A stretch of 64,000 nucleotides of DNA from a virus. This document shows, one piece after another, positions 7,509 to 42,360 of this stretch. How positions within the stretch are numbered: the first letter of the stretch is position 1; every line of letters starts with the position of its first letter. Made by a program: the position numbers and the translations under genes. The DNA is taken from the IMG/VR virus record IMGVR_UViG_3300045988_071562, positions 18,522 through 82,521 of that record. One strand, written 5' to 3'. Below the pieces are notes generated by a model. That model searched no databases, was not told where the DNA came from, and was given only the letters and a program-made list of their open reading frames with translations.

Positions 7509-7910
7509 TTAAAGTAATTTTCCTGTATATATCCGGCTGTATCGACTCACAAGCTTTTTGATTCCACTGTCGCCAAAAAACATAGGTTCCGGTCCGTATG
7601 TACGGCGGAATCCCATGCTCACCATAGTTTTGTGACTTATCTTGTCCAATTCATACAATCTGGTTAATGCTTTGCTCCCAGATGTGAAGCAATTTACTTG
7701 AAATGATGGTATTGTTGCACATTCATCTCCTTCAAGGTCACCTCTCGTAATTGGATTTCCAAGCATATAAAGCTGTGCATATGCTTTTTTGTCAGAAGCA
7801 TTTGTTTCGCTCCCGTCCATGGAATAATTGTCTGCGCCAGTAATCTTAGAAACAGCCTCTCCCCATTTTGAAAAAACTTCCAGTACAGGGGATTCTATTG
7901 TGTCTGGCAT
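7509..7910 (-). CDS. Tail completion / tail terminator-like protein (position-based)
   Basis: ORF track 7509..7964. Start moved to ATG 7910 (MPDTIESPV) behind GAGGTGA. It is the last neck-type gene before the major tail gene. Confidence 0.45.
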   Translation of the reverse strand: MPDTIESPVLEVFSKWGEAVSKITGADNYSMDGSETNASDKKAYAQLYMLGNPITRGDLEGDECATIPSFQVNCFTSGSKALTRLYELDKISHKTMVSMGFRRTYGPEPMFFGDSGIKKLVSRYSRIYTGKLL

Positions 7911-7925
7911 ATCTGTCACCTCACA

Positions 7926-7960
7926 ATAAAAAATGCGCCCACCTTTATGGTGAACGCATT
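7926..7960 (-). terminator. Intrinsic terminator or attenuator inside the neck operon
   Basis: Stem AATGCGCCCACC / GGTGAACGCATT (7932-7960, 10 of 12 bp paired, 5-nt loop), followed on the minus strand by T6 (A-run 7928-7933 on plus). Confidence 0.5.
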
Positions 7961-8007
7961 GCATGTTATGCTACAATTTAACACTGTAATCATAACATAA
8001 TTGGTTA

Positions 8008-8036: not shown

Positions 8037-8549
8037 TTAAGAAGAGAATACCTCTTTGGCAATTTTGCGAACAGCAATAATAACGGCTTGTTCTGCGTGA
8101 TACATAGGCATGTACGCTCTATTTCCATATGAATGGCGTGTTTCTCCACTTCTTTCGTCCGTATACCACCATCCATAAGGTGAAAATGCATGGGTTTGTC
8201 CGGGGTATGTACCTACTCCGTATTCAGAACCAGAGGGCAGAGGGTAATTGTTTGAACCATATGTGATACCAGCTGAAAATTCAATGAACAACACTTTTTC
8301 ACCAGATAGTCTAACAGAAGCCCCGACGATATTTCCGTTTTGATCATTAATGATTTCTGTATAGTAAGAGCCTTTTTCTTCATCCGGGATTGACTCCATG
8401 GTCGTTTGAATAACATCCAACCCGATTTCAGACAATCGTTTTACAAAAATCTCATTTTTCCTCTGTAGTTCATTTTGGTAAGCTTTTAATTTTTTGAGGG
8501 CATTTTGAATAGATTTCGTTGATAAGTCGCATTTTATTGTCTTACCCAT
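8037..8549 (-). CDS. Neck/tail component, HK97 gp10-like (tentative)
   Basis: Start moved to ATG 8549 (MGKTIKCDLSTKSIQNALKKLKAYQNEL). Its size and position in the head-tail joining block support the call. Confidence 0.45.
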   Translation of the reverse strand: MGKTIKCDLSTKSIQNALKKLKAYQNELQRKNEIFVKRLSEIGLDVIQTTMESIPDEEKGSYYTEIINDQNGNIVGASVRLSGEKVLFIEFSAGITYGSNNYPLPSGSEYGVGTYPGQTHAFSPYGWWYTDERSGETRHSYGNRAYMPMYHAEQAVIIAVRKIAKEVFSS

Positions 8550-8934
8550 CCTCGTTTCCTCTCTTAGAAATTCCGTATCTGGCAATATTGCCCTTTTGTG
8601 TGTCTAAAATCTTCTTTAGCATGTAGTCTGGCAATGCTGCAGGCTCTCCATTTTCGTCCAAAATAAGGCTTCCATCCTCGCTTATTTGTGGGATTCTGTC
8701 TATCCAAAATATATCTGCTTCCTGTGGGTGAAAATTTCGATTAAAGCTTGTAATATACCTGTCATAATCTGGCACTATTCCGGCTGCGATTTCTTCCGGT
8801 GTTCCGGCTGTAGATGATACGGAAAAAGAGTACAAAGCTGGTTTCTCATAAACTTTAATGCGGTCTAATCCTTCTGTTTTTTCGGATATTCGTGACCAGT
8901 ATACCTTTTGCTTTTGACGGACTAATCCTCTCAT
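8542..8934 (-). CDS. Head closure / head-tail adaptor-like protein (position-based)
   Basis: 130-aa ORF with a GGAGGAA SD. It overlaps the next gene by 8 nt. Confidence 0.45.
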   Translation of the reverse strand: MRGLVRQKQKVYWSRISEKTEGLDRIKVYEKPALYSFSVSSTAGTPEEIAAGIVPDYDRYITSFNRNFHPQEADIFWIDRIPQISEDGSLILDENGEPAALPDYMLKKILDTQKGNIARYGISKRGNEDG

Positions 8935-8984: not shown

Positions 8985-9161
8985 TTACTTACCATCTGGA
9001 TATTCCTCTTTATACAGCATTTCATATTCTTCCACAGGAAGTTTTCCTTTTTTCACATACTCAATACCATATTCTCTTACTTTATCCTGATATTTCTCAG
9101 GAATTGCATCATATGTAATAGTTCCTACAATCAATCTGTTAAAAAATACTTTTGCCATCAT
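8985..9161 (-). CDS. Small conserved phage protein (CD1375-like)
   Basis: Start moved to ATG 9161/9158 behind GGAG. MAKVFFNRLIVGTITYDAIPEKYQDKV resembles the CD1375-type mini-protein of clostridial phages. Confidence 0.4.
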   Translation of the reverse strand: MMAKVFFNRLIVGTITYDAIPEKYQDKVREYGIEYVKKGKLPVEEYEMLYKEEYPDGK

Positions 9162-9177
9162 TTTATTTCTCCTTTTC

Positions 9178-9330
9178 TTATTCAGCATTTCCAAGTGTTT
9201 CAAGCAGTTCGCAGACAGCAATCTCAAGGTCATTGATACGTTCTTCATTGCTTACCACCGTTTCTTTTTTCTCAAAGTCTGATTCAACCAGACCAAGTTT
9301 CTCAATCATTTTCTTCTGCATTTCAGTCAT
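9178..9330 (-). CDS. Hypothetical 50-aa protein
   Basis: Below the ORF-track cutoff. ATG 9330 overlaps the fibre gene stop (ATGA) and follows GGAGGTGG. Reads MTEMQKKMIEKLGLVESDFEKKETVVSNEERINDLEIAVCELLETLGNAE. Confidence 0.4.
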   Translation of the reverse strand: MTEMQKKMIEKLGLVESDFEKKETVVSNEERINDLEIAVCELLETLGNAE

Positions 9331-11006
9331 TTTGCCACCTCCGCTAAAGATATTACATATTCCTCAGAACTTGGTACAGGAATTCTGTAATCATTACCGT
9401 TGCTGTTTTTGAACGTCAGTGTACCGCCTACTTCAACTTCAAGAGGTTCTTGGAATGTATTGCCTATGATATCCGAGATGTCAGAAACAATTGGTTCGGC
9501 AAGTTCATAGCAGAGCATGATTCCATTGATCTTGTTTTTGAAATCGTTTTCATCGGTACAAAATGTTGATTTCACCGTGAACTGAAGAGGGTATGCCATT
9601 TCACTATTACCTATACTATATTCGTATTCATTTCTATTAATATCGTTTACTTTTACGATATTAAATTTCTCACATATTGAATTTCCACTGTATGTGCTAT
9701 ATCTTCTTATGACTGTGTTAAGGCTGCCGCTTTTATATGTTGCATTGCCATCACGCTGAGCGTCACCAGACTCCATCCAATTCAACGTCCCCAAATCCAC
9801 TTTGTCAACTCTCTGGATATACTGCTTATTCTCCCAATTCACTTCATTTCTCACATCCCCAGCTGACCAACCGTAACCAGGAAGATTAAGAATGGCTTGT
9901 GGAATAGAGTAATGTGTTTCTTGAGTTTTGGTATCTGAATATGTAATTTCATTCACAGAAGCGCTCATCAACTCTCCTGCATTATACGGATAATAGTCTG
10001 CTGGAAACATAGCTTCAAATTCCTCTTGTGTGGATGGTTCGTTGCCAGTACCAAACATTTGTGTGAGATCAAAAATATTCATTCGCATCGTAATATTATC
10101 CACGGTTACTTTGTCTTTTACAAATATTATTGGATTAAAAGCGTAATTATAAATTACTGCTTTTTTTAGTGGGGAAGAACCGCCGTTAATTGCAAAACCA
10201 TAATTTCCATCAGAATATTTATCGGCTTTAACTAAATATTTATGACCTGATACATATTTTTTTGAAAATAAATATACGATTGTATCAATTCCATCATCGT
10301 TAGATGCACTGCAAGTTCCATTTATTGTCCACGAACCATCCTTATTGTTTATAAAAGAAATACCATTTTTCGTAATAGATTTCCCGCTATTTAAATTCAA
10401 CTGATTCCAAACAATTGTCTTACCTCCGATACTTTTAATGCTTGCTACTTTCGCACCACTTGGAACCGTTTTCTGATAAGCTTCCGCATCATCTGTCTGA
10501 AATTCATAGCTGATACCCTGATTAAGTTTCCAGAGTGCATCGAGTTTTCTGTCAGTTTTAACAAGGGATGTTTTATCGGCTTTAGATATCATGTCTTCCT
10601 TTAGTGAACCAGTTTCCGTTTTCAGTGAAGCAATGTCTGTCTTGTTCTGCTCGATCTGCTGTGCCTGTTCTGTCGTGGCGCCAGGCTTGACTGGGTTCTT
10701 CTCAAAATATTCCGTGACTAATCTTTGTATTACCGACTCTGCTTCTTCTTTTGTAAAATAAAGTGACATATCAATCGGTGCGCCCATAGTATCCCAGGTC
10801 ACGCCATTCCAGGATACGTTCATTCCAGCTTCGCCGTAGATGGATTTGGATTCGATATTGTACATGTCTCCAATGGCTGGATTTAACGGAAGCAAATCAG
10901 CAGTCGCAACTGTACCTCTGTATCTTACAGGGCTATTTAATTTTGCTTCCATATCGGAAATCTGGCGTTTTAATATTGCATATACTTTCTTTGCTGTTAA
11001 TGCCAT
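9327..11006 (-). CDS. Tail fibre / host-recognition-like protein
   Basis: Start moved to ATG 11006 (MALTAKKVY). The N-terminal ..YRGTVATADLLPLNPAIGDMYNIE..WNGVTWDTMG.. is the motif common to Firmicute phage fibre N-termini. A coiled coil (DIASLKTETGSLKEDM) and a beta-rich C-terminal region of about 350 aa follow. Confidence 0.55.
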   Translation of the reverse strand: MALTAKKVYAILKRQISDMEAKLNSPVRYRGTVATADLLPLNPAIGDMYNIESKSIYGEAGMNVSWNGVTWDTMGAPIDMSLYFTKEEAESVIQRLVTEYFEKNPVKPGATTEQAQQIEQNKTDIASLKTETGSLKEDMISKADKTSLVKTDRKLDALWKLNQGISYEFQTDDAEAYQKTVPSGAKVASIKSIGGKTIVWNQLNLNSGKSITKNGISFINNKDGSWTINGTCSASNDDGIDTIVYLFSKKYVSGHKYLVKADKYSDGNYGFAINGGSSPLKKAVIYNYAFNPIIFVKDKVTVDNITMRMNIFDLTQMFGTGNEPSTQEEFEAMFPADYYPYNAGELMSASVNEITYSDTKTQETHYSIPQAILNLPGYGWSAGDVRNEVNWENKQYIQRVDKVDLGTLNWMESGDAQRDGNATYKSGSLNTVIRRYSTYSGNSICEKFNIVKVNDINRNEYEYSIGNSEMAYPLQFTVKSTFCTDENDFKNKINGIMLCYELAEPIVSDISDIIGNTFQEPLEVEVGGTLTFKNSNGNDYRIPVPSSEEYVISLAEVAK

Positions 11007-11019
11007 ATGCGCTTCTCCT

Positions 11020-11262
11020 TTACAGTTTGTACCATGTATCGGTAGGTTTGTGATATTCGTATAATTCAGAAGTATCAAGGCACAACGCCGAAGAACCGCT
11101 CTGTACATAATGTGGGAGCTTTGATACATCTTTTGAAAGTCCCTCGTAATCACGAACCATACCTTTTGCATCTGTACATACCCAACTGCCTAAATCAGGC
11201 AATTCATCACCTGGATTGTACTGAATGCCATCAAAAATAATTGTGTTTTCTGCTTTTGCCAT
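11020..11262 (-). CDS. Hypothetical protein (80 aa)
   Basis: From the ORF track. It abuts its neighbours with no gap. Confidence 0.5.
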   Translation of the reverse strand: MAKAENTIIFDGIQYNPGDELPDLGSWVCTDAKGMVRDYEGLSKDVSKLPHYVQSGSSALCLDTSELYEYHKPTDTWYKL

Positions 11263-11649
11263 TTACGCAATCATCCTTTCTGCCCCAATGGGAGCTACAT
11301 ATGTGAACTGGTTTCCTAAAATATCTCTGGCTGTGCCAATAACAAACTGTCCATAGTCTGCCAGAATATTGCATACAAATTCCTCTGCATCCACCCAATA
11401 CCGTTTCTTAACCATACGATGAAGTTCTGGTAATAGACCATAGCTGAACATCACACAATGCCCTAACTCATGAATAAATACACGGTTTATAAGTTCGCCA
11501 TGCAGGTTGTTTGCAATCGAAATTGTCATTGTAGAGTAATCAGATACAGCAAGTGTCCTCTGCCCTGTACGGTCAATCAAAACATTATCATTTGGAGAAA
11601 CAAAGCGAACTCTCCATAAGTCCCCATTCATATAGAATTGTCGTAGCAT
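11263..11649 (-). CDS. Zn-metallopeptidase-like protein (HExxH), ImmA/IrrE- or SprT-like
   Basis: ..ISIANNLHGELINRVFIHELGHCVMFSYG.. carries the HELGH zincin motif. 128 aa. Confidence 0.55.
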   Translation of the reverse strand: MLRQFYMNGDLWRVRFVSPNDNVLIDRTGQRTLAVSDYSTMTISIANNLHGELINRVFIHELGHCVMFSYGLLPELHRMVKKRYWVDAEEFVCNILADYGQFVIGTARDILGNQFTYVAPIGAERMIA

Positions 11650-11725
11650 GGTTTATCACCATCCTTTCTACGAAAAAAGCCCCTGCCGCATTAATTTGCG
11701 ACAAGGACTTAATTCATTTATTACT

Positions 11726-12352
11726 CTAGTTCATCTGCTGTACAAGACGGGTCAGATCAGTTTTCATCGACTGTCTGAGCGATGCATCCGCATCAGACCA
11801 CATTTCTGTGAGATTACGGATAATATCGGATGTGTACTCTTTCATGGAATCATCCATTTTTCTTTTGGATTCCGTGTCTTTGGAATCATGATAATGCCTA
11901 CGATTCTCATCGTATCTATCATAGGATTCGCCATATCTGGATTTCTTCCGATTCATGTCACCCATTTCCATATCACTACGGTCTGGATGATATCCCATGC
12001 GGTACATATTGCGCTCAAATTCTGGATTGTTTAAATACTCATCCATCCAGTCATCATCCTGCATATACAGATACGGTCTATAGCCTTTTCTGGTTCCCCT
12101 ACCTTTTGGAGCGAAACGCCCATTTGAATAGCGGTAACGGTCATATCCCATGCGTCCAAGATACTTTTCTTCCTGTTCGCATTCATCCATGGCTTCTACA
12201 ATACGATAATCTTTGTCAGCGCAAATTGCACATTTAACCGCTTCCATGCAGTCTTTCAGATCGTCCCAGTCTTGAGCGCTGAGATTATCAAAGCCATGTG
12301 TTTTTGCTTTTTCCATAGCCCATTTTCCCATTTCCATTGCAACTTTATGCAT
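11726..12352 (-). CDS. Hypothetical highly charged Arg/Tyr/Asp/Met-rich protein
   Basis: 208 aa with a GGGGG SD. Contains CMEAVKCAIC followed by ..RYRYSNGRFAPKGRGTRKGYRPYLYMQDDDWMDEY..SRYGESYDRYDENRRHYHD. Confidence 0.5.
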   Translation of the reverse strand: MHKVAMEMGKWAMEKAKTHGFDNLSAQDWDDLKDCMEAVKCAICADKDYRIVEAMDECEQEEKYLGRMGYDRYRYSNGRFAPKGRGTRKGYRPYLYMQDDDWMDEYLNNPEFERNMYRMGYHPDRSDMEMGDMNRKKSRYGESYDRYDENRRHYHDSKDTESKRKMDDSMKEYTSDIIRNLTEMWSDADASLRQSMKTDLTRLVQQMN

Positions 12353-12777
12353 TACAGTGCCCCCTTTCTAACAGCCTGCGTAACAGGTGCTTCTGTCGTT
12401 GGGGCTGTACCATTAATTGCTTTCAAATTGTTGCTCGGACTACATGCCGGATTTCCTAACATTTTGAACGCTCCACCAGTAGCACTTGTTGCAACTCTGG
12501 TTGCATATTTTGTTCTGGTTCTTACGCCACATGCTGTTACCTGTGCGCAACAACGATTCTCCAATGGATATAAAGTTGTTCCTGTTCCTATCTGAATCAT
12601 CACTGGGGCGGTAATTGTGGTTGTATTCGGAATAGACTGCGCTAAAACAATGCAGTATTTTTCTCCATTATTGTAGCTTCCTTCCGGGATAGTAACCACA
12701 AGATTTCCACCTGTGAATGCAATTGCAGTAGACAGCACAAGGTGATTGCAAATCTTACAAACATTCTTACATGCCAT
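12352..12777 (-). CDS. Hypothetical Cys-rich protein
   Basis: 141 aa with a GAGGT SD. Contains MACKNVCKICNH.. and ..RCCAQVTACGVRTRTKY..NPACSPSNN. Confidence 0.5.
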   Translation of the reverse strand: MACKNVCKICNHLVLSTAIAFTGGNLVVTIPEGSYNNGEKYCIVLAQSIPNTTTITAPVMIQIGTGTTLYPLENRCCAQVTACGVRTRTKYATRVATSATGGAFKMLGNPACSPSNNLKAINGTAPTTEAPVTQAVRKGAL

Positions 12778-12855
12778 ATTTTTTACCTCTCAATCAATAA
12801 GAGGTGAGCCGCAACCCACCTCTTAGAATTTAGTCAACCTCTAAGGGTGAGTTAC

Positions 12856-13662
12856 TTAGCAACAACCACTGTTGCATCCGTTGTTTCCGTAATATCCATA
12901 CAAATTACTTGCCGGATATGACGGAACTGGAAGCGGTGCAGTGCGTCTGAGGATTTCTGCTGTATTTGCGTTCATAGCCGCCTGTAATACCGCATTCTGG
13001 TCGGACTGTGAAGCCGCCAGTTTAAGTGCCTGATTCTCTGCTCTGAGGTCTGCTGTCTCTTTCTGGCAAAGATAATCAAGGATTGCTCTTGTGTTGCTGT
13101 TCTGATTTTCCAGAAGGTCTCTGGTGTTATTGTTCATTGTGTTCTGCAATGCACAAGTGTTGGTAGCCAGGTTATAGTTGATACCCTGGATGGCTTCTCT
13201 GTTGTCACAGCAACACTGAGCTAACTGAGACTGTAATGCGTTTGTGTTCTGCATATTCGCTACAGTATCAGCATTGATTGCCTGCTGAACGCCGTTGAAA
13301 CCTTGAAGCATTCCAACATTCACACCATTGAAGCCACTCTGCATGGTATTGTTAAGTGCATATGTGCTATCACAAATGCCCTGCTGAATACCTCTAATAC
13401 CATTCTGAATATCGTTCAGAGCAAAGCTCTCATTGATATCCGCTCTGGTTGCCCATCCTTGGAAACCTGCACCATTTGTACCGTTTCCACCATTGCCACC
13501 CCAGCCGCCAAAGCCGCCGAAACCGCCCCAGCCAAAGATTGCGAAAATAAGGACAAGCCAAATAAGGGAAAAACCATCGCCGCCCCACATGTCGTTTGCA
13601 CGGTTATTAGAGCCTGTAGCGGCTGCAATGTCGCTAAGACTATAATTTGAACCATTCATCAT
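12856..13662 (-). CDS. Membrane-anchored Gly/Trp-, Asn/Gln- and Cys-rich low-complexity protein
   Basis: 268 aa. The N-terminus ..DMWGGDGFSLIWLVLIFAIFGWGGFGGFGGWGGNGGNG.. has a TM segment flanked by GW repeats. The core is N/Q-rich with a CCC run. The C-terminus reads ..YGYYGNNGCNSGCC. Confidence 0.55.
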   Translation of the reverse strand: MMNGSNYSLSDIAAATGSNNRANDMWGGDGFSLIWLVLIFAIFGWGGFGGFGGWGGNGGNGTNGAGFQGWATRADINESFALNDIQNGIRGIQQGICDSTYALNNTMQSGFNGVNVGMLQGFNGVQQAINADTVANMQNTNALQSQLAQCCCDNREAIQGINYNLATNTCALQNTMNNNTRDLLENQNSNTRAILDYLCQKETADLRAENQALKLAASQSDQNAVLQAAMNANTAEILRRTAPLPVPSYPASNLYGYYGNNGCNSGCC

Positions 13663-13756
13663 GTTTTTAGTCTCCTTAAATTTTATTTACAATAGGAGAC
13701 ATCCGCGGCTGTCATCCCAAATTGTAGCGATTCTAAATCACCCAATTATGGGGAAG

Positions 13757-14005
13757 TTATTTCATCCCTAAAAATTTTTCTAAAATTCCTTCAGGAGAAA
13801 AATTCTTTTCTTTAAATATATTTTGCTGAACTTGGTGTAGTTGTTCTGTATCGCCATGTTTGTATAAATCCAGAGCATTTTTTAATGTTGGATTGTTTCC
13901 AGCAAATTTACTCATATCGTTCATCATGTTATCAACACTTCCGAACCTCTGAGAAATCATTTGCTGAATTTTTTGTTTCATTATTGTATTTGGGTTGAAA
14001 TTCAT
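13757..14005 (-). CDS. Hypothetical protein (82 aa)
   Basis: From the ORF track. Its start overlaps the upstream stop by 4 nt. Confidence 0.45.
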   Translation of the reverse strand: MNFNPNTIMKQKIQQMISQRFGSVDNMMNDMSKFAGNNPTLKNALDLYKHGDTEQLHQVQQNIFKEKNFSPEGILEKFLGMK

Positions 14006-14490
14006 CTCTGATTACCTCCCTTCTGTGTCTTGGGCGGTTCAGATTGTATTGGCAATAATTCTTTAATTTCAGAAATTTCAGCATGAACATCATCACGAAG
14101 TTGATTAATCAGCGAAACAATATCAACTTGATTTGCATTATTGGTTTCTGGTTGTTCTCCTTCATTTACAAGTCTGTAAGTGAAAATTCGGCTTCTGCCA
14201 TCTGCCTGTAACTGTTTTCGGTAAACTTCTGTACCATCAGTTTTTGGATAATAAACAGGATTCCCGGACATATCCACATCTTTTGCCTTTACAGTATCAA
14301 TTCCATCAACCATCTGTCCTTGCAACATGGGGATTTGTGGTACTTGTGGCATTTGTTGTATTGGTTGCTGAATCTGTGCCTGTCCGTATGGCATTGCCTG
14401 CTGATAACTATTCTGCAATTGTGCTAATCTATCTTGATACGGTTGTATTTGTTGAAATGGTTGCGCAAAATACGGATTACCATACTGCAT
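14002..14490 (-). CDS. Hypothetical protein with a Gln/Pro-rich N-terminus
   Basis: 162 aa with a GGGAGG SD. The first ~60 aa read MQYGNPYFAQPFQQIQPYQDRLAQLQNSYQQAMPYGQAQIQQPIQQMPQVPQIPMLQGQ. A globular C-terminal half follows. Confidence 0.5.
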   Translation of the reverse strand: MQYGNPYFAQPFQQIQPYQDRLAQLQNSYQQAMPYGQAQIQQPIQQMPQVPQIPMLQGQMVDGIDTVKAKDVDMSGNPVYYPKTDGTEVYRKQLQADGRSRIFTYRLVNEGEQPETNNANQVDIVSLINQLRDDVHAEISEIKELLPIQSEPPKTQKGGNQR

Positions 14491-14548
14491 ATCTCAAACC
14501 TCCCTTGTTTTTATAAGTATATTTTACAATAATAAGAGGTTGATTAAC

Positions 14549-14577
14549 ACGCCATGATAACGCCATAAATACGCCAT
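14549..14577 (-). promoter_or_regulatory. Three direct repeats ACGCCAT (minus strand ATGGCGT) at exactly 11-bp spacing
   Basis: Copies at 14549-14555, 14560-14566 and 14571-14577. They lie between the sigma-like gene stop (14580) and the next gene (start 14490). Confidence 0.55.
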
Positions 14578-14579
14578 TT

Positions 14580-14819
14580 CTATGAATGCAAAGAAAAGCC
14601 CCGACAATACATCGGGGCAACTTTCATAATTTTCTTTTTTAATTTTCTATTTATGCGGTCTACAGTTCTTGTGCTGTACCCCATGATTTCTGAAGCTTCT
14701 GCAAGTGTTTTTTCTTCGTAAACACGCAATCGGAATAACTCTTTTTCTCTGGAATCAAATCCAGCTTCACGCAAATAGAAGATTCTTTCATCTTCCGAAA
14801 AGTCTTTATAATTATCCAT
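14580..14819 (-). CDS. Small sigma-70 region-4-like HTH protein
   Basis: Start moved to ATG 14819 (MDNYKDF) behind GGGAGG. ..LFRLRVYEEKTLAEASEIMGYSTRTVDRINRKLKKKI.. is a region 4.2-type HTH. Confidence 0.55.
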   Translation of the reverse strand: MDNYKDFSEDERIFYLREAGFDSREKELFRLRVYEEKTLAEASEIMGYSTRTVDRINRKLKKKIMKVAPMYCRGFSLHS

Positions 14820-14850
14820 TCCACCGTCCTCCCTGTTAGTGGAATCAATA

Positions 14851-15162
14851 TTACACCGGGAAAATGCCTTTAAGGGCAAATCCTAAAACAATACCAATTA
14901 TGCCAGTTATGACATAAGCAATAATTTTGTCCTGTAATTTTCCTGGCTTTTCCATGAGTGCTTTTAAATTGTCGTTCATTTCGTCAACTGTATCTTTGAT
15001 GTGGCTCAGGTCATTGTTGTATAAAGCAATTTTCTGTTCCAGCGCATTGATACGTTCAAAAAAAATTCCATCCCTTTTGGAATGCTTTTCTTTCATCTCA
15101 TGGACGGCGCTTTCCAATTCTTTCAAGCGGTGTTCGTTAATACACTCGTGTTCACATCCCAT
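14851..15162 (-). CDS. XhlA-like protein (coiled coil with a C-terminal TM segment)
   Basis: 103 aa. ..LKELESAVHEMKEKHS..INALEQKIALYNNDLSHIKDTVDEMNDNLKAL.. is followed by IIAYVITGIIGIVLGFALKGIF. Same architecture as PBSX XhlA. Confidence 0.5.
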   Translation of the reverse strand: MGCEHECINEHRLKELESAVHEMKEKHSKRDGIFFERINALEQKIALYNNDLSHIKDTVDEMNDNLKALMEKPGKLQDKIIAYVITGIIGIVLGFALKGIFPV

Positions 15163-15271: not shown

Positions 15272-15592
15272 TTAGAATCCGATAAATGGAAAAACTCCAT
15301 GATTTACATAGATTTCAGTTTCGGAATTCCAACTTCTATTTACGGAAGATTCGGAATGTGATCCTTGGAATTCAGCTCCCTGTTTCACTAGAAAGAAAAG
15401 AGCCAAATCAAATATGCAATCATAGCAGTTTTCCATATCAGAATTTATTTTCTCATCACTGTAGGATGAAGGATAATTCCTTTTCTTCTTAAATGAACGA
15501 ATAGCCCTCTTTGCTGAAAGAGGAATCATCCTCGCAGTTTCTGCATCATCTTCAAGATAATTTGTCAAATCCTCTATAAGCTGTTCGTCCAT
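15272..15592 (-). CDS. Head-tail connector protein, gp6-like
   Basis: 106 aa (MDEQLIEDLTNYLEDDAETARMIPLSAKRAIRSF..DLALFFLVKQGAEFQGSHSESSVNRSW). Its pattern and post-capsid position match the family. Confidence 0.6.
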   Translation of the reverse strand: MDEQLIEDLTNYLEDDAETARMIPLSAKRAIRSFKKKRNYPSSYSDEKINSDMENCYDCIFDLALFFLVKQGAEFQGSHSESSVNRSWNSETEIYVNHGVFPFIGF

Positions 15593-15600
15593 TTAATCAC

Positions 15601-15912
15601 CTACCTTTGCTGAGATAAAATCTCTGATATTATTCCAGCCTTATTAGTTGCTGTCAGGGCATAGCCGTTATCACTTGCGAGTTGTCTTAACTGAGATACA
15701 GTCATATTAGACAACTCGCTTTCTGTATACTTATGTGTTGATTCATCATAAGCACTTGCTACAGATGGTGACTGGCTGTTTTCATCGAGACTATGCCCGG
15801 TTATTCCCCCGCCTTGGTACCGATTACGATACCGCCGTTGGCTTTGGGTACAACCGGGACGAACATACCGGATGCTTTTGTCCATACTGCAACTGGATCC
15901 TGTGTAGCCCAC
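15601..15912 (-). CDS. ORF in the -1 frame overlapping the capsid gene 3' end; C-terminal Rho_N/SAP-like helix-hairpin; own start unresolved
   Basis: ..ESELSNMTVSQLRQLASDNGYALTATNKAGIISEILSQQR. After the capsid stop the only in-frame starts are TTG about 15717 and ATG 15708, and neither has a convincing SD. See the capsid-extension finding. Confidence 0.45.
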   Translation of the reverse strand: MGYTGSSCSMDKSIRYVRPGCTQSQRRYRNRYQGGGITGHSLDENSQSPSVASAYDESTHKYTESELSNMTVSQLRQLASDNGYALTATNKAGIISEILSQQR

Positions 15913-16838
15913 ATGGAAAGGGTTACAAAAGAACGGTTCTCTTCCTGAATGAACTGTCTGTATTCAAGTTCCTCAGGTGTCACACCCCAGAGACCAACAC
16001 CGAAAGAACCGTTAGCATCTGCTTCATACAGAGTAAATACATCCTCTTTAAGGTATCTGGCTGTTTTCAGGGTTCCATCTGCTTTTCTGAAATTAAAGTT
16101 CTCATCACAACGATCAATTGTGATTTCATATTCCTGCATAAGCAGATTGGCAAGCTCCTGCTTTGTGAGAAGCCTTTTATTTGCAGCACCCAGAACAGCT
16201 GTCTGCATTGCAGTGTTGTTCCGCATATAGTTAATCATTTTAAGAGAAGTAACAGCTTTGTTTACTACATAGCCATTGCCTTCTGCTACAGCTACCATTT
16301 TCTGGATATCGCCCATGATGTCTGCATCTGGCTTAGACCAATCAGTAAGCGTTACTTTTGCACTTGCTGGAACGCCATAGTCAATTCCCATGTCAACATG
16401 ATTCTCTTTGATTGTTACAGCGCCAGTGGAAAGGAACTGTCCTTTCATAACATTTGCTCTTGTAACAACGCCCTCGAACAGTCTGGCTGCATCATCAAAT
16501 ACAAAGCTTTTCAGCGCTTCATTATCCGGCACACCGTTTTCAATTGCCTGCCGTAAGTTTTCGGACTGATTGATTTTTCTCTTAATGAAGAGTTTTTCAG
16601 TCAGGACTTTTTCAAATCCAGGTCTTGTGCCGATTTCTGCTTCGCTATCAAGAGCGTGGACGAATGCAACTTCAGGGAGATTCTGTCCAGCCATAAGTCT
16701 GTAATACTCTGCTTTCAGATACTGGGTTTTTGTATCTGGGAAAATGGTATCGAGGATACCTGGTCTTTTAACGCTGAAATTCTGAGAGAAATTAAGTCTT
16801 TCTTCTTGGGTAATTGATTCCAAAATATTAAATGGCAT
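15801..16838 (-). CDS. Major capsid protein (protein E-like family)
   Basis: 345 aa with a GGAGG SD. MPFNILESITQEERLNFSQNFSVKRPGILDTIFPDTKTQYLKAEYYRL.. is typical of the family. It follows the scaffold and decoration genes. Confidence 0.85.
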   Translation of the reverse strand: MPFNILESITQEERLNFSQNFSVKRPGILDTIFPDTKTQYLKAEYYRLMAGQNLPEVAFVHALDSEAEIGTRPGFEKVLTEKLFIKRKINQSENLRQAIENGVPDNEALKSFVFDDAARLFEGVVTRANVMKGQFLSTGAVTIKENHVDMGIDYGVPASAKVTLTDWSKPDADIMGDIQKMVAVAEGNGYVVNKAVTSLKMINYMRNNTAMQTAVLGAANKRLLTKQELANLLMQEYEITIDRCDENFNFRKADGTLKTARYLKEDVFTLYEADANGSFGVGLWGVTPEELEYRQFIQEENRSFVTLSMWATQDPVAVWTKASGMFVPVVPKANGGIVIGTKAGE

Positions 16839-17214: not shown

Positions 17215-17865
17215 TTAAATATTTACAGGGGCGTTACCGTCCGCTGATTTAGTTTCCTGGTTCATTTTTTTTGCTGAGTAAGCTTTTGCGAATTCAGCAG
17301 CATCGCTTTTCACTGTAGCTTTGCCACCACTACCACCGCCCGGATTCGGAGTGTTTTCCAATGCTTCTTTCTCCCAAGCTGCCTTTGCGGTATCGAGTGC
17401 TGTTTTATTTGCTTCGGAAACTCCCTTAACAAAAGTTTCGACTTCTTTCATTGCATCTTCTGGTTTCTCATACGGTGCAGATGCGTATGCTTTAATAGCA
17501 CTCGCGTATGTTTCAGTTGAAAGTCCTGCATTTGCGAACATAGAAGTAATTTCACTGGTAAGGGCTTTTTTGTTGGATTCTGCAAGCGCAGCTTTCAAAT
17601 CAGCTAACTCCTTATCCACTGCTTCCTTTTCTTTCTTGCGTTCAGCTTCTAGCCGTTCGGCTTCGGTCATGTTCTGCTTTTTCAACTCTTCCAACTCTTT
17701 TTCCAGGGAATCTGCTTTTTCAGCTTTTTCCTTCAGAGAAACATTTTTGTCTTTCTCTTTCTTAGTTTCAGCAGAAATAGAATCAAGAAGCTTAGAAACC
17801 TGTTCCTCGGAAGGTTCTGCAACTCCCATACCGATAAGTGCCTGTTTTGCCTGTTCTCTTGTCAT
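17215..17865 (-). CDS. Capsid scaffolding protein
   Basis: Start moved to ATG 17865 (MTREQAKQ) behind GGAGA. It is an Ala/Glu/Lys-rich coiled coil located between the portal and capsid genes. Confidence 0.65.
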   Translation of the reverse strand: MTREQAKQALIGMGVAEPSEEQVSKLLDSISAETKKEKDKNVSLKEKAEKADSLEKELEELKKQNMTEAERLEAERKKEKEAVDKELADLKAALAESNKKALTSEITSMFANAGLSTETYASAIKAYASAPYEKPEDAMKEVETFVKGVSEANKTALDTAKAAWEKEALENTPNPGGGSGGKATVKSDAAEFAKAYSAKKMNQETKSADGNAPVNI

Positions 17866-18030
17866 TGAAATCTCCTTTCTTCCAGTCCAATACGCTTTTT
17901 CAACACGGTTCGCTCCGCACATGGTCTGTACCCGATTTACGCTCACGGGCTGTTGCAATTTATTTGATTTTGGGTATTAAAAAAGAAGCCTTAGATTTCT
18001 CTAAAACTCCTTAAATAATCGAAATTTGGT

Positions 18031-19598: not shown

Positions 19599-19623
19599 GT
19601 ATCATTCAGTATATTTTGGTATC
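19599..19623 (-). repeat. Conserved 25-nt element, copy 2 (minus strand GATACCAAAATATACTGAATGATAC)
   Basis: 24 of 25 nt identical to 8008-8032. It overlaps the stop of 19622..20044 and lies 75-100 nt upstream of the portal start. Confidence 0.7.
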
Positions 19624-20044
19624 ATCTTTCAAAACCTTTTATCTTTTTTACTTCTGCCAAAGCTTTTAAGTGTTTTTTCTTAATATGTATTTCAGAATAT
19701 CCCATCTCGTCTGCGATACGAACCAATGATTTGTACTCAACATAGTGCTTAAATAGTATGTTGTACAGCAACGGGTCTTCAACCTGTTCTATGGTTCGAA
19801 CTATTTCCTGTTTTTTTTGTAAAAATTCGGATATCATTTTTGAAATCTCTTCTCGCAGATCAAATATCTTTGCAACCATATCTCCCATTGGATCACGTTT
19901 TACAGAAGTTTGTACCTTTTCTCCAACAGGGATTGCAGATACACTTGTGGAAAGAGAACTGAGCTGTTCTTCTTCGATAAGCTTGTTTTTGATTCTGTTA
20001 TCATAATTTTCAATTTGTCGTAAATATTGAGTTGCAGTCATCAT
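19622..20044 (-). CDS. DUF1492 / ArpU-RinA-like late regulator (sigma region-4-like)
   Basis: 140 aa. The C-terminal ..LLYNILFKHYVEYKSLVRIADEMGYSEIHIKKKHLKALAEV.. is an HTH. It sits unusually between TerL and the portal gene. Confidence 0.55.
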   Translation of the reverse strand: MMTATQYLRQIENYDNRIKNKLIEEEQLSSLSTSVSAIPVGEKVQTSVKRDPMGDMVAKIFDLREEISKMISEFLQKKQEIVRTIEQVEDPLLYNILFKHYVEYKSLVRIADEMGYSEIHIKKKHLKALAEVKKIKGFER

Positions 20045-21808: not shown

Positions 21809-23011
21809 TTATTCACTTGCTTTAAAGTTATATATAGGTTTGATAATATCAATTATTTCTACGGTATCTTTGATGTTATCAATAATTTCTTGCGGTGTTT
21901 TGTAAGCCATAGGGCTTTCATCAATTGTAGATTTATGAACGGATGTTGTATATATTCCATCCATAGACTCCTTAAATTCTTCTAACGAAATGTTTTCTTT
22001 TGCTTTTGACCGGCTCATAATACGTCCTGCGCCATGCGGGGCTGAACAGTTCCAATCCTCGTTTCCTTTCCCGACTGCAATAATGCATCCGTCTCGCATA
22101 TTCATGGGGATAAGAACTTTTTCACCATACTTAGCTGATATCGCACCTTTCCGAACAATATTTGTATCGTGGTCAATATAATTATGAATTGTGTCAAACC
22201 ATGTATTTCTTTGAAGCGTCCAATTCATGCTGTAGAATATAGCCGACTGTATACACCGTCTGTTTATTCTTGCAAATTCTTGACAGATTTTCATATCATG
22301 CAGATATTGTTTTCTGTGTTCTCCTGTCAAGTAGCACAATTCTTTCGGAATGTCAAGTTTGTCTGGCTTCCATTTTCGTTTTAATTCGTCAATACCATTT
22401 TGAATTTCCTTGTGCCTGCCAGAGCACTTGTATTCTTTTATTAATTTCTGTATTTCAGTTTCAAGTTTATCTGTGCTCCGCATATCTTCTATGGCAATTT
22501 TTTGATATATTTCAGCTACTTGCTTCCCAAGGTTGCGACTTCCAGTATGAATTACAAGGTATTTTGCACCTTTTGAATTGGTGTCAACTTCAATAAAATG
22601 ATTTCCACCCCCAAGTGTACCAAGGCTCCTGCGAATCCATTCGATATTTTTAAGCTGATGAAAGCAGTGAAGTTCTTCTAATTCTTCAAAATTTATGATT
22701 TCGTCACGTACATTTCTTCCTGCTGGAACATTGTTTCTTATTACTTCGTCAAGTTTTTTTAAATCTATTGTTCCCACATCGGTAGGAATTTGTGTTGTAA
22801 GCATTCCACATCCAATGTCCACGCCAACAATGTTTGGAATTACTTTATCTCCGAGATCAGCAGTAAAGCCAATTACACATCCTGCTCCTGCGTGAACATC
22901 TGGCATGATTCGTACTTTGCATTCAGAAAATGCAGGCTGTTTTATCAATGCATAAATCTGATTTAATGCTTCTGGTTCGATATTTTCTGTAAATATCTTC
23001 AAGTCACTCAT
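21809..23011 (-). CDS. rtcB: RNA ligase RtcB
   Basis: 400 aa with the hallmark motifs PDVHAGAGCVIG, GVDIGCGM, GGGNHFIE, HTGSRNLG, MRDG and SAPHGAGR. Confidence 0.9.
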   Translation of the reverse strand: MSDLKIFTENIEPEALNQIYALIKQPAFSECKVRIMPDVHAGAGCVIGFTADLGDKVIPNIVGVDIGCGMLTTQIPTDVGTIDLKKLDEVIRNNVPAGRNVRDEIINFEELEELHCFHQLKNIEWIRRSLGTLGGGNHFIEVDTNSKGAKYLVIHTGSRNLGKQVAEIYQKIAIEDMRSTDKLETEIQKLIKEYKCSGRHKEIQNGIDELKRKWKPDKLDIPKELCYLTGEHRKQYLHDMKICQEFARINRRCIQSAIFYSMNWTLQRNTWFDTIHNYIDHDTNIVRKGAISAKYGEKVLIPMNMRDGCIIAVGKGNEDWNCSAPHGAGRIMSRSKAKENISLEEFKESMDGIYTTSVHKSTIDESPMAYKTPQEIIDNIKDTVEIIDIIKPIYNFKASE

Positions 23012-25943: not shown

Positions 25944-26015
25944 TAGAAACAACAGGAATCGAACCTGTGTCACATGATATTGGATATCATTGCTCTACCA
26001 CTGAGCTATGTTTCT
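25944..26015 (-). tRNA. trnW: tRNA-Trp (anticodon CCA)
   Basis: AGAAACA-TA-GCTC-AGTGGTA-GAGC-A-ATGAT-ATCCAAT-ATCAT-GTGAC-ACAGG-TTCGATT-CCTGT-TGTTTCT-A. Full cloverleaf, 72 nt, no encoded CCA. Confidence 0.85.
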
Positions 26016-26237
26016 TTTTCATCCTCAAACGCTAAACAAGATGATTTTTTTAGAATCCCCGACTATCACTCCTCACGGGCATTGGTCTTATCTCTCTAAA
26101 AAGTTTTTGCACAAGATCGCTAGTGAGTTGCGTCTATATGCCTGCACGAACGCACACAAACAAATCCGCATTTATGTGCAAGAACTAACAATAGCTATGC
26201 TAAAGTCAGATTTCCTATCTACACTTGGTAGATAGAA

Positions 26238-26309
26238 TTGCAGGAGACGGATTCGAACCGCCGTTTCCATGGATATGAGCCATGTGAGATTCCACTTCTC
26301 TATCCTGCA
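26238..26309 (-). tRNA. trnM: tRNA with anticodon CAT (Met; could be Ile2 if lysidinylated)
   Basis: TGCAGGA-TA-GAGA-AGTGGAA-TCTC-A-CATGG-CTCATAT-CCATG-GAAAC-GGCGG-TTCGAAT-CCGTC-TCCTGCA-A. No initiator features (1:72 is paired and there is no GGG/CCC in the anticodon stem). Confidence 0.8.
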
Positions 26310-26657
26310 AGAACCCGGAAGAACCGGGTTAGCAATAGGTTTATCGTGTTATGCTTTCCACTATCCAGTTTTCTTTATTTGCGGCACGCATACTGGCAAC
26401 CCTAGCGGCTTTTTGATAACCGTGGTATGCTCCACGAGTATTTTTATGCACAACTTTAATGGCTTATGGTTCGCATCTTTTGAAAACTCCTTTAATCAGC
26501 GTGCGCTGCGCTGATTTCTTTAACTCCAAGATGCATTCCAGCTGGGAAACCAGATCCATTTAGGCTACGCCGTATCGCACCTATAATTTACCTGATCCAC
26601 ACGCTCAACTGGAAGTTTTTTCCACACATATTACGGATGAATGGCATTTAGAAGAAA

Positions 26658-26730
26658 TGGAAACTCTGGGATTCGAACCCAGGACTTACGGCTTATGAGG
26701 CCGTTGCTCTTACCGCTGAACTAAGCTTCC
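26658..26730 (-). tRNA. trnM: tRNA with anticodon CAT (Met or Ile2)
   Basis: GGAAGCT-TA-GTTC-AGCGGTAA-GAGC-A-ACGGC-CTCATAA-GCCGT-AAGTC-CTGGG-TTCGAAT-CCCAG-AGTTTCC-A. Confidence 0.8.
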
Positions 26731-26944
26731 TGAGATACCAGTTGGCAATACTGGTAACCAAACTGGCACTGTTACAGTTCTTAACCACCAACTATAACAA
26801 AGGTTTTCTGAAATACTCCTGATACTTCAGATACGCCTTCCGGGATATTTGAAGTCCCTTTAATCAGTCTCAGTTAGACTAGAAGGCTAGAGGTGTTTCT
26901 TATGAAAAAAAAGAATATTTTTGCAGCATATTAACTACTGCAAA

Positions 26945-27016
26945 CTGGGCTAGTTGGATTTGAACCAACGAATTGTGGAGTCAAATTCCACGGCCTTACC
27001 ACTTGGCGATAGCCCA
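26945..27016 (-). tRNA. trnQ: tRNA-Gln (anticodon TTG)
   Basis: TGGGCTA-TC-GCC-AAGTGGTAA-GGC-C-GTGGA-ATTTGAC-TCCAC-AATTC-GTTGG-TTCAAAT-CCAAC-TAGCCCA-G. The U1:A72 pair and 3-bp D stem are typical of bacterial tRNA-Gln. Confidence 0.85.
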
Positions 27017-34456: not shown

Positions 34457-34524
34457 ACCGGTAAGCGTACCGGGGAGCATTTCCCCGGCGACCTTTTAAC
34501 AAAAATTCAAGGAGGATAAAAAAC

Positions 34525-34728
34525 ATGATGAAAATTGACATGTGGTACAATGACAAAAAGGAGCAGGCAACCGAGCTTGATATCTGGTTTAATGATTTAG
34601 GGTGTTTTTACTCTGGAAATATCAAGATTTTTGGCAAGACCGTTGGGGATTATTACGCCGACAGTGTGCAAGAAATTTGTGAAGCGTTCCCACATCTGGA
34701 AGAGAAAATAAACGCTTGTTTGAATTAA
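34525..34728 (+). CDS. Hypothetical protein (67 aa)
   Basis: AGGAGG SD. Confidence 0.5.
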   Translation: MMKIDMWYNDKKEQATELDIWFNDLGCFYSGNIKIFGKTVGDYYADSVQEICEAFPHLEEKINACLN

Positions 34729-34742
34729 ATAAATCGATTCCG

Positions 34743-34767
34743 GGCGGGGCTTTCCCGCCTGTTTTTC
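34743..34767 (+). terminator. Intrinsic terminator or attenuator
   Basis: GGCGGGG (34743-34749) pairs with TCCCGCC (34753-34759), followed by TGTTTTT. Confidence 0.45.
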
Positions 34768-34787
34768 TAAAAAAGGAGGGCTTAAAC

Positions 34788-37223: not shown

Positions 37224-37246
37224 TGATTCCACTCCCATTTTTTCTC

Positions 37247-38959: not shown

Positions 38960-39040
38960 AGTGCATTTCTCCCTCAATAAACAGGGAGTGGAATCATATA
39001 AAGTATAACACCTCACATAACTCCACTCAATACATTTTCG

Positions 39041-42302: not shown

Positions 42303-42360
42303 GATTAATCCTCCAATTTTAATTTTTGTAAAATAAATCAAATTATATGAATTTTATGTG

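Follow-up and report, generated by a model that had tools for sequence, protein, structure and literature searches.

Why should the head-tail joining module of a phage be interrupted by genes whose products do not look like joining proteins? The question is raised by positions 11263-15162 of a 64,000-nucleotide stretch of the virus record IMGVR_UViG_3300045988_071562 (the window), which comes from a temperate, ~80-kb gut siphovirus of Clostridia of the Lachnospiraceae/Ruminococcus type. A preliminary description of the window had counted nine genes here, between a "gp6-like connector" gene and "adaptor-type neck" genes, and had read them as a spore-coat-like insertion with its own sigma-like regulator. 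All open reading frames (ORFs) that it described were recovered on the minus strand with the same borders, but the interval contains eight ORFs rather than nine (Table 1). We conclude that a horizontally mobile, self-contained cassette of late genes has landed inside the neck module, that these eight genes make up one copy of it, and that it is common to thousands of phages, is accessory, and is not tied to spores.

That the genes are inserted into the head-tail joining module was borne out by two phages with related capsids. In phiEf11, whose capsid protein is 32% identical to the major capsid protein (MCP) of the window phage, the MCP gene is followed by genes for a 110-amino acid (aa) adaptor, neck proteins of 111, 126, and 129 aa, and the tail tube. 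The neck genes are also contiguous behind the MCP gene in the gut phage MT835513, whose capsid protein is 44% identical. MT835513 carries a copy of the cassette ~16 kb away from this site, after the lysis genes; there, genes for an XhlA-like protein of 100 aa, two holin-like proteins, and an endolysin form a block like that of PBSX, and genes for a helix-turn-helix (HTH) protein, a papain-like protein, a Q/P protein, a small Q-rich protein, and TM268, the hallmark protein of the cassette, come next. The labels of the two borders in the window hold with respect to position and size; the 106-aa border protein and the adaptor-type neck proteins have no match in Pfam or PHROG. By positional analogy with phiEf11 gp11, it is reasonable to regard the 106-aa protein as adaptor-like. 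Its gene, which is adjacent to the MCP gene, is kept in 80 of 80 close relatives, defined by a capsid protein at least 91% identical to that of the window phage. We note that a ~34-aa ORF (15601-15705, minus strand) directly after the capsid gene has a SAP/HeH-like helix-extension-helix motif (...VSQLRQLASDNGYALTATNKAGIISEILSQQR), to which its PHROG 3281 match is limited.

The same 80 relatives showed the cassette to be separate from the adjoining fiber block, which separates it from the next neck gene (8542-8934). The eight-gene block is present in nearly all of them, while the fiber block is missing from most, and in relatives without it, the spacing between the 106-aa gene and the 130-aa gene is ~3.97 kb, which corresponds to the cassette alone. 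The fiber block is, therefore, a second, independent, and variable insertion. In other relatives, the fiber-like gene is swapped for variants of 629-690 aa that have the N-terminus alone in common. In L006 (8614-12243), a reverse transcriptase gene (RVT_1) lies behind the fiber-like gene, an arrangement that suggests a diversity-generating retroelement (DGR) targeting the fiber. In L064 (12817-13875), one gene for a 352-aa SGNH/GDSL-type hydrolase replaces everything from the 82-aa ORF through the zincin gene. The database protein P0244, possibly a chimera that arose in assembly, joins the first 171 residues of TM268 to a GDSL hydrolase.

Comparison with more distant loci supports that the cassette is a portable unit. 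The order of its products is a small transmembrane (TM) protein, an HTH protein with sigma-70 region 4, a terminator, a Q/P protein, a small Q/N/M protein, TM268, a beta-sandwich protein, an R/Y/D/E protein, and an HExxH zincin. The part from the Q/P protein to the zincin is kept in 16 loci from bacterial genomes, mostly of Lachnospiraceae and other Clostridia, and in several phage records, with unrelated flanks. The cassette lies inside the neck module in the window and in L027, between the genes for the minor capsid protein and the scaffold in L025, behind holin and lysin genes in bajarodcaudo virus 5, behind the endolysin gene in Butyrivibrio phage Ceridwen and L022, and ~4 kb past the amidase and holin genes in Clostridium perfringens phage CPD1; in L011, it is at the prophage end and adjoins a serine recombinase gene, and in L013, it adjoins host genes. 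It is always co-oriented with the late genes. Because the same gene order recurs in distant loci with unrelated flanks and at differing genome positions, we consider the cassette one mobile unit. Moreover, each of the eight ORFs has hundreds to thousands of homologs, and their order is conserved across distant loci, and they are, therefore, real genes. Three observations support that the cassette is accessory, namely, the contiguous neck genes in phiEf11 and MT835513, the SGNH hydrolase replacement in L064, and Tunavirus Sfin-1, which has no module at the site where the related Hanrivervirus carries one (PMC6714547).

Many cassettes have an extra gene between those for the HTH and Q/P proteins, and the window copy is without it. 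It encodes a protein of 121-132 aa with an N-terminal "NPNP...(G/E)DC.VRA" (L002 7665-8042; L018 1087-1452; L022 3364-3729; L116 9047-9445; also in Ceridwen and MT835513), which is PHROG 3754, has no Pfam match, and by its sequence looks like a minimal papain/C39-like cysteine peptidase. A ferritin-like identity that we considered for CPD1_043 and bajarodcaudo h75 had no support in Pfam.

Table 1. Positions of the cassette genes, associated hairpins, and neighboring features in the window
Feature	Coordinates	Strand	Description
XhlA-like protein, 103 aa	14851-15162	-	N-terminal coiled coil, C-terminal TM helix; cassette gene 1
Small HTH regulator, 99 aa from TTG start	14580-14879	-	Sigma-70 region 4 only
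Intrinsic-terminator-like hairpin + T-run	14598-14618	-	At 3' end of HTH gene
QP162, 162 aa	14002-14490	-	Q/P/Y-rich low-complexity N-terminus, beta domain, C-terminal helix
g82, 82 aa	13757-14005	-	Small helical protein, Q/N/M-rich
TM268, 268 aa, cassette hallmark protein	12856-13662	-	PHROG 16490
Intergenic region, two hairpins	12778-12855	-	Between TM268 and Cys141 genes
Cys141, 141 aa	12352-12777	-	Cys-rich N-terminal extension + beta-sandwich body
RYD208, 208 aa	11726-12352	-	Helical ends around R/Y/G/D/M-rich low-complexity core
Strong terminator-like hairpin, 14-bp stem + T-run	11677-11710	-	3' of RYD208
HELGH128, 128 aa, minimal zincin metallopeptidase (from sequence)	11263-11649	-	HELGH at residue 60
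106-aa protein	15272-15592	-	Upstream border, outside cassette; head-tail adaptor by position + size
Fiber block: 80-aa ORF, 559-aa fiber-like protein, 50- and 87-aa ORFs	8985-11262	-	
Three neck-sized proteins	8542-8934, 8037-8585, 7509-7964	-	
Holin, 97 aa	7157-7450	-	PF16079 Phage_holin_5_2 on identical contigs
Major capsid protein (MCP)	15801-16838	-	PF03864 and PHROG 29
Scaffold	17215-17958	-	Then 114-aa head protein, then MCP

TM268 has an acidic N-tail of ~30 aa, a hydrophobic helix at approximately residues 31-43, a GW/GF glycine-rich stretch with GWGGFGGFGGWGGNGGNG at residue 44, an N/Q-rich helical region of ~150 aa that contains a CCC triplet (residue 150), the motif "LAASQxxQN" and a proline-rich "RPxPxPAY", and a Cys/Gly-rich C-terminus ending in ...NGCNSGCC; those of its motifs that had been quoted before were all confirmed. 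The protein matches PHROG 16490 at 3e-65. Its homologs form >7,900 clusters at 90% identity, and a profile search recovered at least 2,440 at 50% identity; the counts from these and the other protein-family searches are lower bounds, and some clusters are present on hundreds of contigs. There is no recurrent Pfam domain among 101 diverse representatives, and the family has no match in the PDB by profile search or in NCBIfam. The CCC triplet is found in 98 of the 101 representatives and a hydrophobic core (mean Kyte-Doolittle value of ≥2.0 near residue 32) in 91. The N-tail has 0.6 K+R versus 3.0 D+E, and in 83 of the 91 members with the core, the C-flank is more positive than the N-tail. This charge bias is weak but consistent evidence from the sequences for an N-out/C-in topology, in which the long domain would be cytoplasmic.

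TM268 homologs occur far beyond the Clostridia. In the crAss-like phage cr53_1, gp66 has the TM268 architecture motif for motif, and its neighbors are annotated as holin, LysB/FtsL-like, and "sigma factor/ubiquitin-like." In Bacteroides phage C3_41T2LP, the gene for a homolog with the same architecture precedes four small genes and one for a PolyVal-type metallopeptidase, among recombination genes, and further homologs are present in CPD1 and Ceridwen. A 233-aa protein of enterobacterial siphoviruses (PHROG 9288; 220 phage records; hosts Escherichia coli, Shigella, Salmonella, and Yersinia) is also a TM268 homolog (hhalign, 98.3%, E 2e-14), and in Hanrivervirus and Nonagvirus, it heads a module of four to five genes at the very end of the tail-fiber operon. 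An apparent homology of RYD208 to bas07_0033 of E. coli phage Bas07 JakobBernoulli (hhalign, 98%) proved circular, as the signal vanished once bas07_0033 was removed from the profile, and comparison of the zincin with bas07_0032 was negative. In JakobBernoulli (L032 3659-4363), the TM268 homolog corresponds to two annotated genes, bas07_0035 (77 aa, "hypothetical") and bas07_0034 (125 aa, "putative sugar-binding protein"); sister phages have a single homolog of 232-235 aa, and the two genes probably result from a frameshift or from a split made in annotation. The "Campylobacter phage" records A123, A15b, A16a, and A118 contain a copy ~98% identical to the E. coli phage gene.

Cys141 is encoded directly downstream of TM268. 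The motifs reported for it, CKNVCKIC at residue 3 and RCCAQVTAC at residue 75, are present, and its cysteines are distributed over the N-terminal extension (C3, C7, and C10) and the body (C42, C76, C77, C83, and C112). Eight cysteines are conserved in the family, which has at least 2,491 homologs and no Pfam match. The AlphaFold2 (AF2) model is an all-beta core with a beta sandwich at a pLDDT of 60. Searching the PDB with this model using Foldseek gave no significant match (best E 0.04, a capsid spike), and the family profile (A1) had no match there either. In BFVD, the model matched its own family first and then distal domains of tail-fiber, hyaluronidase-fiber, collagen, TAA-stalk, and C1q proteins with a probability of ~1.0 and E values of 1e-4 to 1e-2, at TM-scores of ~0.4. 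A crAss-like DUF7841 protein was among the better structural matches (TM-score 0.54, rmsd 2.5 Å), and a DUF7841 protein (E 5e-16) is encoded inside the Bacteroides version of the module (L033 6934-7335, C3_41T2LP_00032). In many cassettes, the slot of Cys141 is occupied by a different beta protein, PHROG 20016, the homology of which to Cys141 is undetectable (A1 versus A5 profiles). Two identities considered for the beta proteins were rejected: HMM, PDB-profile, and PDB-fold searches gave no support for Cys141 as an Ena/DUF3992 protein, and the BclA/C1q identity suggested by the C-terminal pattern "...NANLIV.R.A" of the alternative beta protein A5 had no Pfam or PDB-profile match.

The remaining proteins combine low complexity with small conserved parts. 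The unusual composition that had been pointed out is genuine, with Cys at 5.7% in Cys141 and 3.4% in TM268 versus a median of 1.8% in minus-strand ORFs and R+Y+D at 29.8% in RYD208. Enrichment in Gln/Pro was likewise evident in the first 60 residues of QP162, but at 28 of 60 residues, "mostly" slightly overstates it. QP162 and RYD208 are conserved families in which low-complexity regions accompany short folded or helical segments. QP162 matches PHROG 21718 at 2e-18, has a beta domain of ~50 aa with invariant V61, Y90, K92, and G98 (family alignment A6), and has no relative in the PDB; a GerQ-like or spore-coat identity found no match in NCBIfam, Pfam, or PDB. In all Firmicutes cassettes examined, homologs or positional equivalents of g82 of 60-90 aa and with 34-51% Q+N+P+M are encoded immediately before TM268. 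RYD208 has no Pfam, PHROG, or NCBIfam match, and homologs with 30-36% identity are encoded at the same position in L010, L011, L012, L014, L021, and L023. We also observed that Met codons make up 4.8% of the cassette versus 2.9% of other late genes and that Gln codons, mostly CAG, are also increased. The window has four tRNA genes (25944-27016, minus strand) for Trp(CCA), Met(CAT) twice, and Gln(TTG); a link between these and the Q/M-rich cassette is weak because the Gln codons are mostly CAG and the Met/Gln excess is modest.

The HELGH motif described for the last gene of the cassette was confirmed. In 12 HELGH128 sequences of 23-37% identity, W12 and H60-E61-x-x-H64 are invariant, and an EE..AD motif follows downstream. 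The profile matches the minigluzincins MJ1213 (E 0.0017) and projannalysin (E 0.0096), and weak matches to Peptidase_M78 (best 2e-4), SprT-like (6e-4), and DUF6782, all below the cut-off, were obtained for 7 of the 12 members; PHROG 1233 is matched at 1e-9. Judged from these sequence features, HELGH128 is a minimal zincin metallopeptidase. Direct reading of the sequences revealed no hydrophobic N-terminal signal in any of the partner proteins of TM268.

The first two genes bear on lysis and regulation. For the XhlA-like protein, PHROG 937 ("hemolysin") is matched at 1.3e-14 over the full length, and in Pfam, XhlA (PF10779; E 1.5e-4) reached 22.3 bits versus a gathering cut-off of 34.7. In the window, this gene is not beside holin and endolysin genes; the nearest holin gene is ~7.4 kb downstream, and an endolysin gene is absent nearby. 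In MT835513, the equivalent gene heads the canonical XhlA-holin-holin-endolysin block, and in other cassettes, unrelated small TM proteins fill this slot. The holin gene of the window is part of the structural operon, with the last neck gene on one side and the tail tube gene on the other, which is an unusual location for a holin gene; no endolysin gene is in sight near it, and the holin of the relative L003 is of the r1t type.

The second gene is assigned to the sigma region-4-like HTH proteins, as proposed, by a match to Sigma70_r4 (PF04545, 7e-7, 29.1 bits versus a gathering cut-off of 24.1) and by TIGR02937 (1e-8), which aligned only over model positions 110-163. Gene callers start the gene at ATG 14819 on identical contigs, and this is likely the true start, giving a protein of 79 aa. 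There was no match for region 2, and all full-length sigma models scored far under their cut-offs. With region 4 alone and region 2 missing, the protein is not a sigma factor but a regulator that binds DNA; thus, of the suggested "own sigma-like regulator," the region-4 HTH within a foreign, self-contained block stands, and the sigma factor does not. In at least seven lineages (L012 [PF08281, 3.7e-6], L011, L018, L022, L001, Ceridwen, and MT835513), the cassette begins with a gene for a small TM protein of one kind or another, followed by one for a region-4 HTH protein of 67-86 aa.

A terminator-like hairpin follows the gene in the HTH position in seven of nine lineages tested, and terminator-like hairpins lie between the genes for TM268 and the beta protein in L001, L012, L022, and L025. 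The transcriptional layout is conserved as [TM + HTH]-terminator-[Q/P, Q/N/M, TM268]-hairpin/terminator-[beta, R/Y/D/E]-terminator-[zincin]. In the window, the ribosome-binding sites of the genes for QP162, TM268, and Cys141 are each paired with an upstream anti-Shine-Dalgarno sequence: that of QP162 is sequestered in a hairpin AACCTC...GAGGTT, and in the second hairpin upstream of the Cys141 gene, the anti-Shine-Dalgarno sequence ACCTCT pairs with the ribosome-binding site. The sequence ACCTCTTATT / CTCCTATTGTAAA, which we considered as a cassette-specific promoter motif, is not enriched in the window and represents the anti-Shine-Dalgarno arm of these masking hairpins. Two further genes of the window touch on regulation and RNA: one for a 140-aa protein of DUF1492, a family of sigma-like late regulators (19622-20044, minus strand), lies between the terminase and portal genes, and one for an RtcB RNA ligase (21809-23011, minus strand) lies directly upstream of the large terminase gene.

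What, then, does the cassette do? It is neither a component of head-tail joining nor a spore-coat system. The reading that we prefer, with a probability of about 0.35, is that it specifies a Cys-rich assembly of stalk and knob that is anchored in the membrane of the infected cell late in infection and acts around lysis. The HTH protein would gate the downstream genes very late in infection and would perhaps be held by the co-transcribed TM protein, much as a sigma factor is held by its anti-sigma factor. TM268 would insert in the cytoplasmic membrane with the short acidic N-tail outside and a long, N/Q-rich, probably trimeric coiled coil inside. Through metal or disulfide links, its CCC triplet and Cys/Gly tail could contact the Cys-rich N-arm of the beta-sandwich protein, resulting in a stalk-plus-knob assembly anchored to the membrane on its inner face. 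The three kinds of low-complexity protein (Q/P, Q/N/M, and R/Y/D/E) would be partners in assembly or in a matrix, and the zincin would trim one component. Such an assembly would affect the envelope, lysis timing, or progeny handling and would be dispensable for particle building.

Membrane anchoring is suggested by the hydrophobic core in 91 of 101 representatives, the acidic N-tail, and partner proteins that are without an N-terminal signal. The XhlA-like first gene and the repeated adjacency to holin and endolysin genes point to lysis. Regulation of its own is suggested by the conserved region-4 HTH, the terminator in seven of nine lineages, and the hairpins that mask ribosome-binding sites, and a role for the peptidase is suggested by the invariant HExxH together with the minigluzincin match. 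As a bolder proposal, which we regard as doubtful, the cassette may represent a previously unrecognized cross-phylum late function, namely, an inner-membrane, Cys/metal-cross-linked stalk-and-knob lattice in low-complexity (prion-like Q/N/P/M and R/Y/D/E) proteins that would be switched by the region-4 protein, matured by the zincin, and not be a virion part, a lysis enzyme, or a described defense.

Several observations weigh against the membrane-anchored assembly. No homology in Pfam, NCBIfam, or PDB ties any core protein to a function. The topology of TM268 is based on charge bias only, and the C-flank is neutral rather than positive. The AlphaFold model of TM268 is all-helical with a pLDDT of 39 and unusable for a fold search, so the trimeric coiled coil and the Cys cross-links stay inferences. 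The N-segment of the enterobacterial homologs is Gly/Ala-rich and far less hydrophobic, and outside the Firmicutes, demonstrable homology is limited to TM268. Accessory genes usually land at the end of late operons, and the adjacency to lysis genes may reflect no more than this. Finally, the modeled beta partner resembles the tip domains of tail fibers, and the enterobacterial modules directly follow tail-fiber genes, which a virion fiber fits at least equally well.

According to this first alternative, the cassette specifies an optional virion fiber or decoration in which TM268 is the trimeric coiled-coil shaft, the beta-sandwich protein the knob, and the low-complexity proteins chaperones, while the peptidase removes the N-terminal hydrophobic tether. 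The mature product would be a dispensable adhesin on the neck, head, or tail, as are the lambda side tail fibers, T4 whiskers, and phi29 head fibers. The matches of the Cys141 model to fiber-type distal domains in BFVD lend this view, and the related earlier suggestion of a cross-linked capsid or neck decoration, some support. In agreement with this, remote-homology labels in GenBank name Bacteroides and crAss homologs "outer capsid protein/viral fiber" and "spike protein," the cassette runs with the late genes throughout, and the Hanrivervirus/Nonagvirus module lies directly behind tail-fiber and chaperone genes. The hot spot in the lineage of the window also takes the fiber gene (in L006 with the DGR reverse transcriptase) and the SGNH hydrolase, and two non-homologous beta proteins swap in one slot, as receptor-binding modules do. 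P0244, if a natural chimera, is a weak hint in the same direction, but it possibly arose during assembly. However, the strongly hydrophobic, TM-like helix in 91 of 101 TM268 members is not known for tailed-phage fibers, a dedicated HTH protein and internal terminators are atypical of structural genes, and in C3_41T2LP and CPD1, the neighbors of the cassette are recombination or early-looking genes. In addition, the Foldseek matches derive from a model with a pLDDT of 60 and have TM-scores of ~0.4. On balance, we regard an optional virion fiber as somewhat improbable, but nearly as probable as the membrane-anchored assembly.

An unlikely explanation is that the cassette is a moron with a function in superinfection exclusion or another phage-host or phage-phage conflict (defense or anti-defense), blocking competing phages or countering host immunity. 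It behaves as a mobile accessory element with its own regulator, it is located at the prophage end in temperate relatives (next to the serine recombinase gene in L011 and host genes in L013), and the peptidase in the Bacteroides phage is annotated as PolyVal type. In T1, the exclusion gene cor presumably lies after the tail-fiber genes, at the position that the module occupies in T1-like phages. With PADLOC models, however, the XhlA-like protein gave no more than coiled-coil noise, the other cassette proteins had no match, and eight genes are many compared with known exclusion systems. Moreover, the cassette is also found in apparently virulent phages, i.e., Ceridwen (PMC7372960), Hanrivervirus, and crAss-like phages.

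We consider it very unlikely that the cassette matures a peptide or bacteriocin, with the zincin or the papain-like peptidase processing a Gly/Cys-rich precursor into a secreted membrane-active peptide. The conserved minimal zincin and the papain-like protein of 121-132 aa in the cassettes of Ceridwen, L018, L022, and MT835513 would fit, and we take TM268 and the split ORF bas07_0035 to resemble glycine-rich bacteriocins in their Gly-rich hydrophobic segment. Among the genes of the window copy, the small zincin alone speaks in favor, and neither a precursor nor modification enzymes were found. Pfam and NCBIfam detected no modification enzymes, transporter, or immunity gene among the cassette proteins; the Cys-rich proteins are 141-268 aa long with folded or helical domains and not short precursors, and the TM268 family is full-length across phyla.

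The weakest explanation is a spore-coat/exosporium-like module whose products would decorate spores, decorate the cell surface, or rewire sporulation through a sigma-like factor. The Gly/Tyr/Cys/Gln-rich composition is genuine, the probable hosts are Clostridia, the HTH protein scores weakly against region 4 of SigF/SigG models, and the N-terminal Cys arm and beta sandwich of Cys141 recall, as we assume, the subunits of endospore appendages (Ena). All of this notwithstanding, a spore-specific role is ruled out by the host range and the absence of spore-family matches, and we regard the explanation as exceedingly improbable: none of the eight proteins matched coat, exosporium, Cot, CdeC, GerQ, BclA, or DUF3992 families in Pfam and NCBIfam at E values up to 0.1; the alternative beta proteins are also without a spore-family match, and PDB fold and profile matches included no Ena or BclA structure; TM268 homologs are carried by phages whose hosts do not form spores (Butyrivibrio fibrisolvens, Bacteroides, crAss hosts, E. 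coli, Salmonella, and Yersinia); the partner proteins are without signal peptides; and a protein of 79-99 aa with region 4 and no region 2 is unable to direct RNA polymerase alone or to replace a sporulation sigma factor.

The cassette proteins are "hypothetical" throughout in NCBI and UniRef. In the literature, the PHROG ids are mentioned nowhere, keyword searching gave nothing on the cassette, and its genes are not discussed in the Ceridwen paper (PMC7372960). Our literature search found no virion proteome for a cassette-carrying phage; the phage 9g paper is without proteomics, and the proteome that exists for Sfin-1 is from a phage in which the module is absent. Because the core families are without a counterpart among curated families and solved structures and no described system has this module composition, we regard the cassette as a new kind of module, the function of which is proposed only.

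The TM268 family is among the larger wholly unannotated phage families that we encountered, and its carriers include abundant phages of human-gut Clostridia, crAss-like phages, and common siphoviruses of E. coli and Salmonella. Once assigned, its function would allow a conserved block to be annotated in the genomes of thousands of gut phages and could expose a new step in late infection or a new class of optional virion appendage. The layout of a TM protein and region-4 HTH protein, a terminator, and effectors is also a candidate for a new late regulatory switch. The question is directly testable by genetics and proteomics because homologous modules are present in the BASEL E. coli K-12 phage Bas07 JakobBernoulli (bas07_0031-0035) and in the cultured phage Ceridwen.

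All genes of the region are on the minus strand, and genes for the tail tube, two chaperone-like proteins, and a tape measure protein of 1647 aa come after the holin gene. Elsewhere in the window, a gene for a 589-aa large serine recombinase (Resolvase, Recombinase, and Zn ribbon domains; 37247-39016, minus strand), from which we concluded that the phage is temperate, lies beside a gene for a DUF4417 protein (36558-37238). The sole plus-strand block (33500-35054) is near the recombinase gene and includes a gene for a DUF4121 protein. A gene for a radical-SAM protein (339 aa) adjoins one for a DUF4317 protein (386 aa; E 5e-138) at 41181-43380 on the minus strand.

Compared with known systems, parts of the cassette have counterparts. 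The product of its first gene is built like XhlA of the PBSX lysis cassette (xhlA-xhlB-xlyA) in Bacillus subtilis, and the equivalent in MT835513 precedes two holin-like genes and an endolysin gene; unlike in PBSX, the XhlA-like gene of the window is detached from holin and endolysin genes. The region-4 HTH protein resembles ECF sigma/anti-sigma pairs and late activators of the RinA/ArpU/DUF1492 type in that it is co-transcribed with a single-pass TM protein and encoded upstream of its presumed targets. It differs from sigma factors in its size (67-99 aa) and in having no region 2, and the window phage has a separate DUF1492 protein. The zincin is similar to minigluzincins, ImmA/IrrE (M78), and SprT-like zincins in its length of ~105-128 aa, N-terminal beta segment, HExxH, and downstream acidic motif; unlike in M78/ImmA systems, HELGH128 scores below the thresholds, and an ImmR-type cognate repressor is not evident.

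TM268, with its N-terminal anchor, long helical heptad-like region, and conserved cysteines, is reminiscent of the i-spanin Rz and of class-I-fusion-like spikes, and we assume that phi29 p16.7 is comparable as a membrane-anchored coiled-coil phage protein. It has no sequence or profile similarity to these proteins, and it differs from spanins in that its predicted topology would place the coiled coil inside the cell and in that direct reading found no lipobox-bearing partner in the cassette; the hosts, as judged from genome scans, are mostly monoderm Lachnospiraceae and other Clostridia, and T1-like phages presumably already possess a spanin. Cys141 differs from Ena (DUF3992) and BclA proteins by having no HMM or fold match to them and by belonging to a cassette also found in phages of non-sporulating bacteria. 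The core pair has a parallel in two-part fibers that join a coiled-coil or collagen shaft to a C1q/TNF-like or other beta knob, as the N/Q-rich helical TM268 is followed by a small, swappable beta-sandwich protein. Unlike in such fibers, shaft and knob would be separate polypeptides here, in models of low confidence, and TM268 has a TM-like helix and a Cys/Gly tail.

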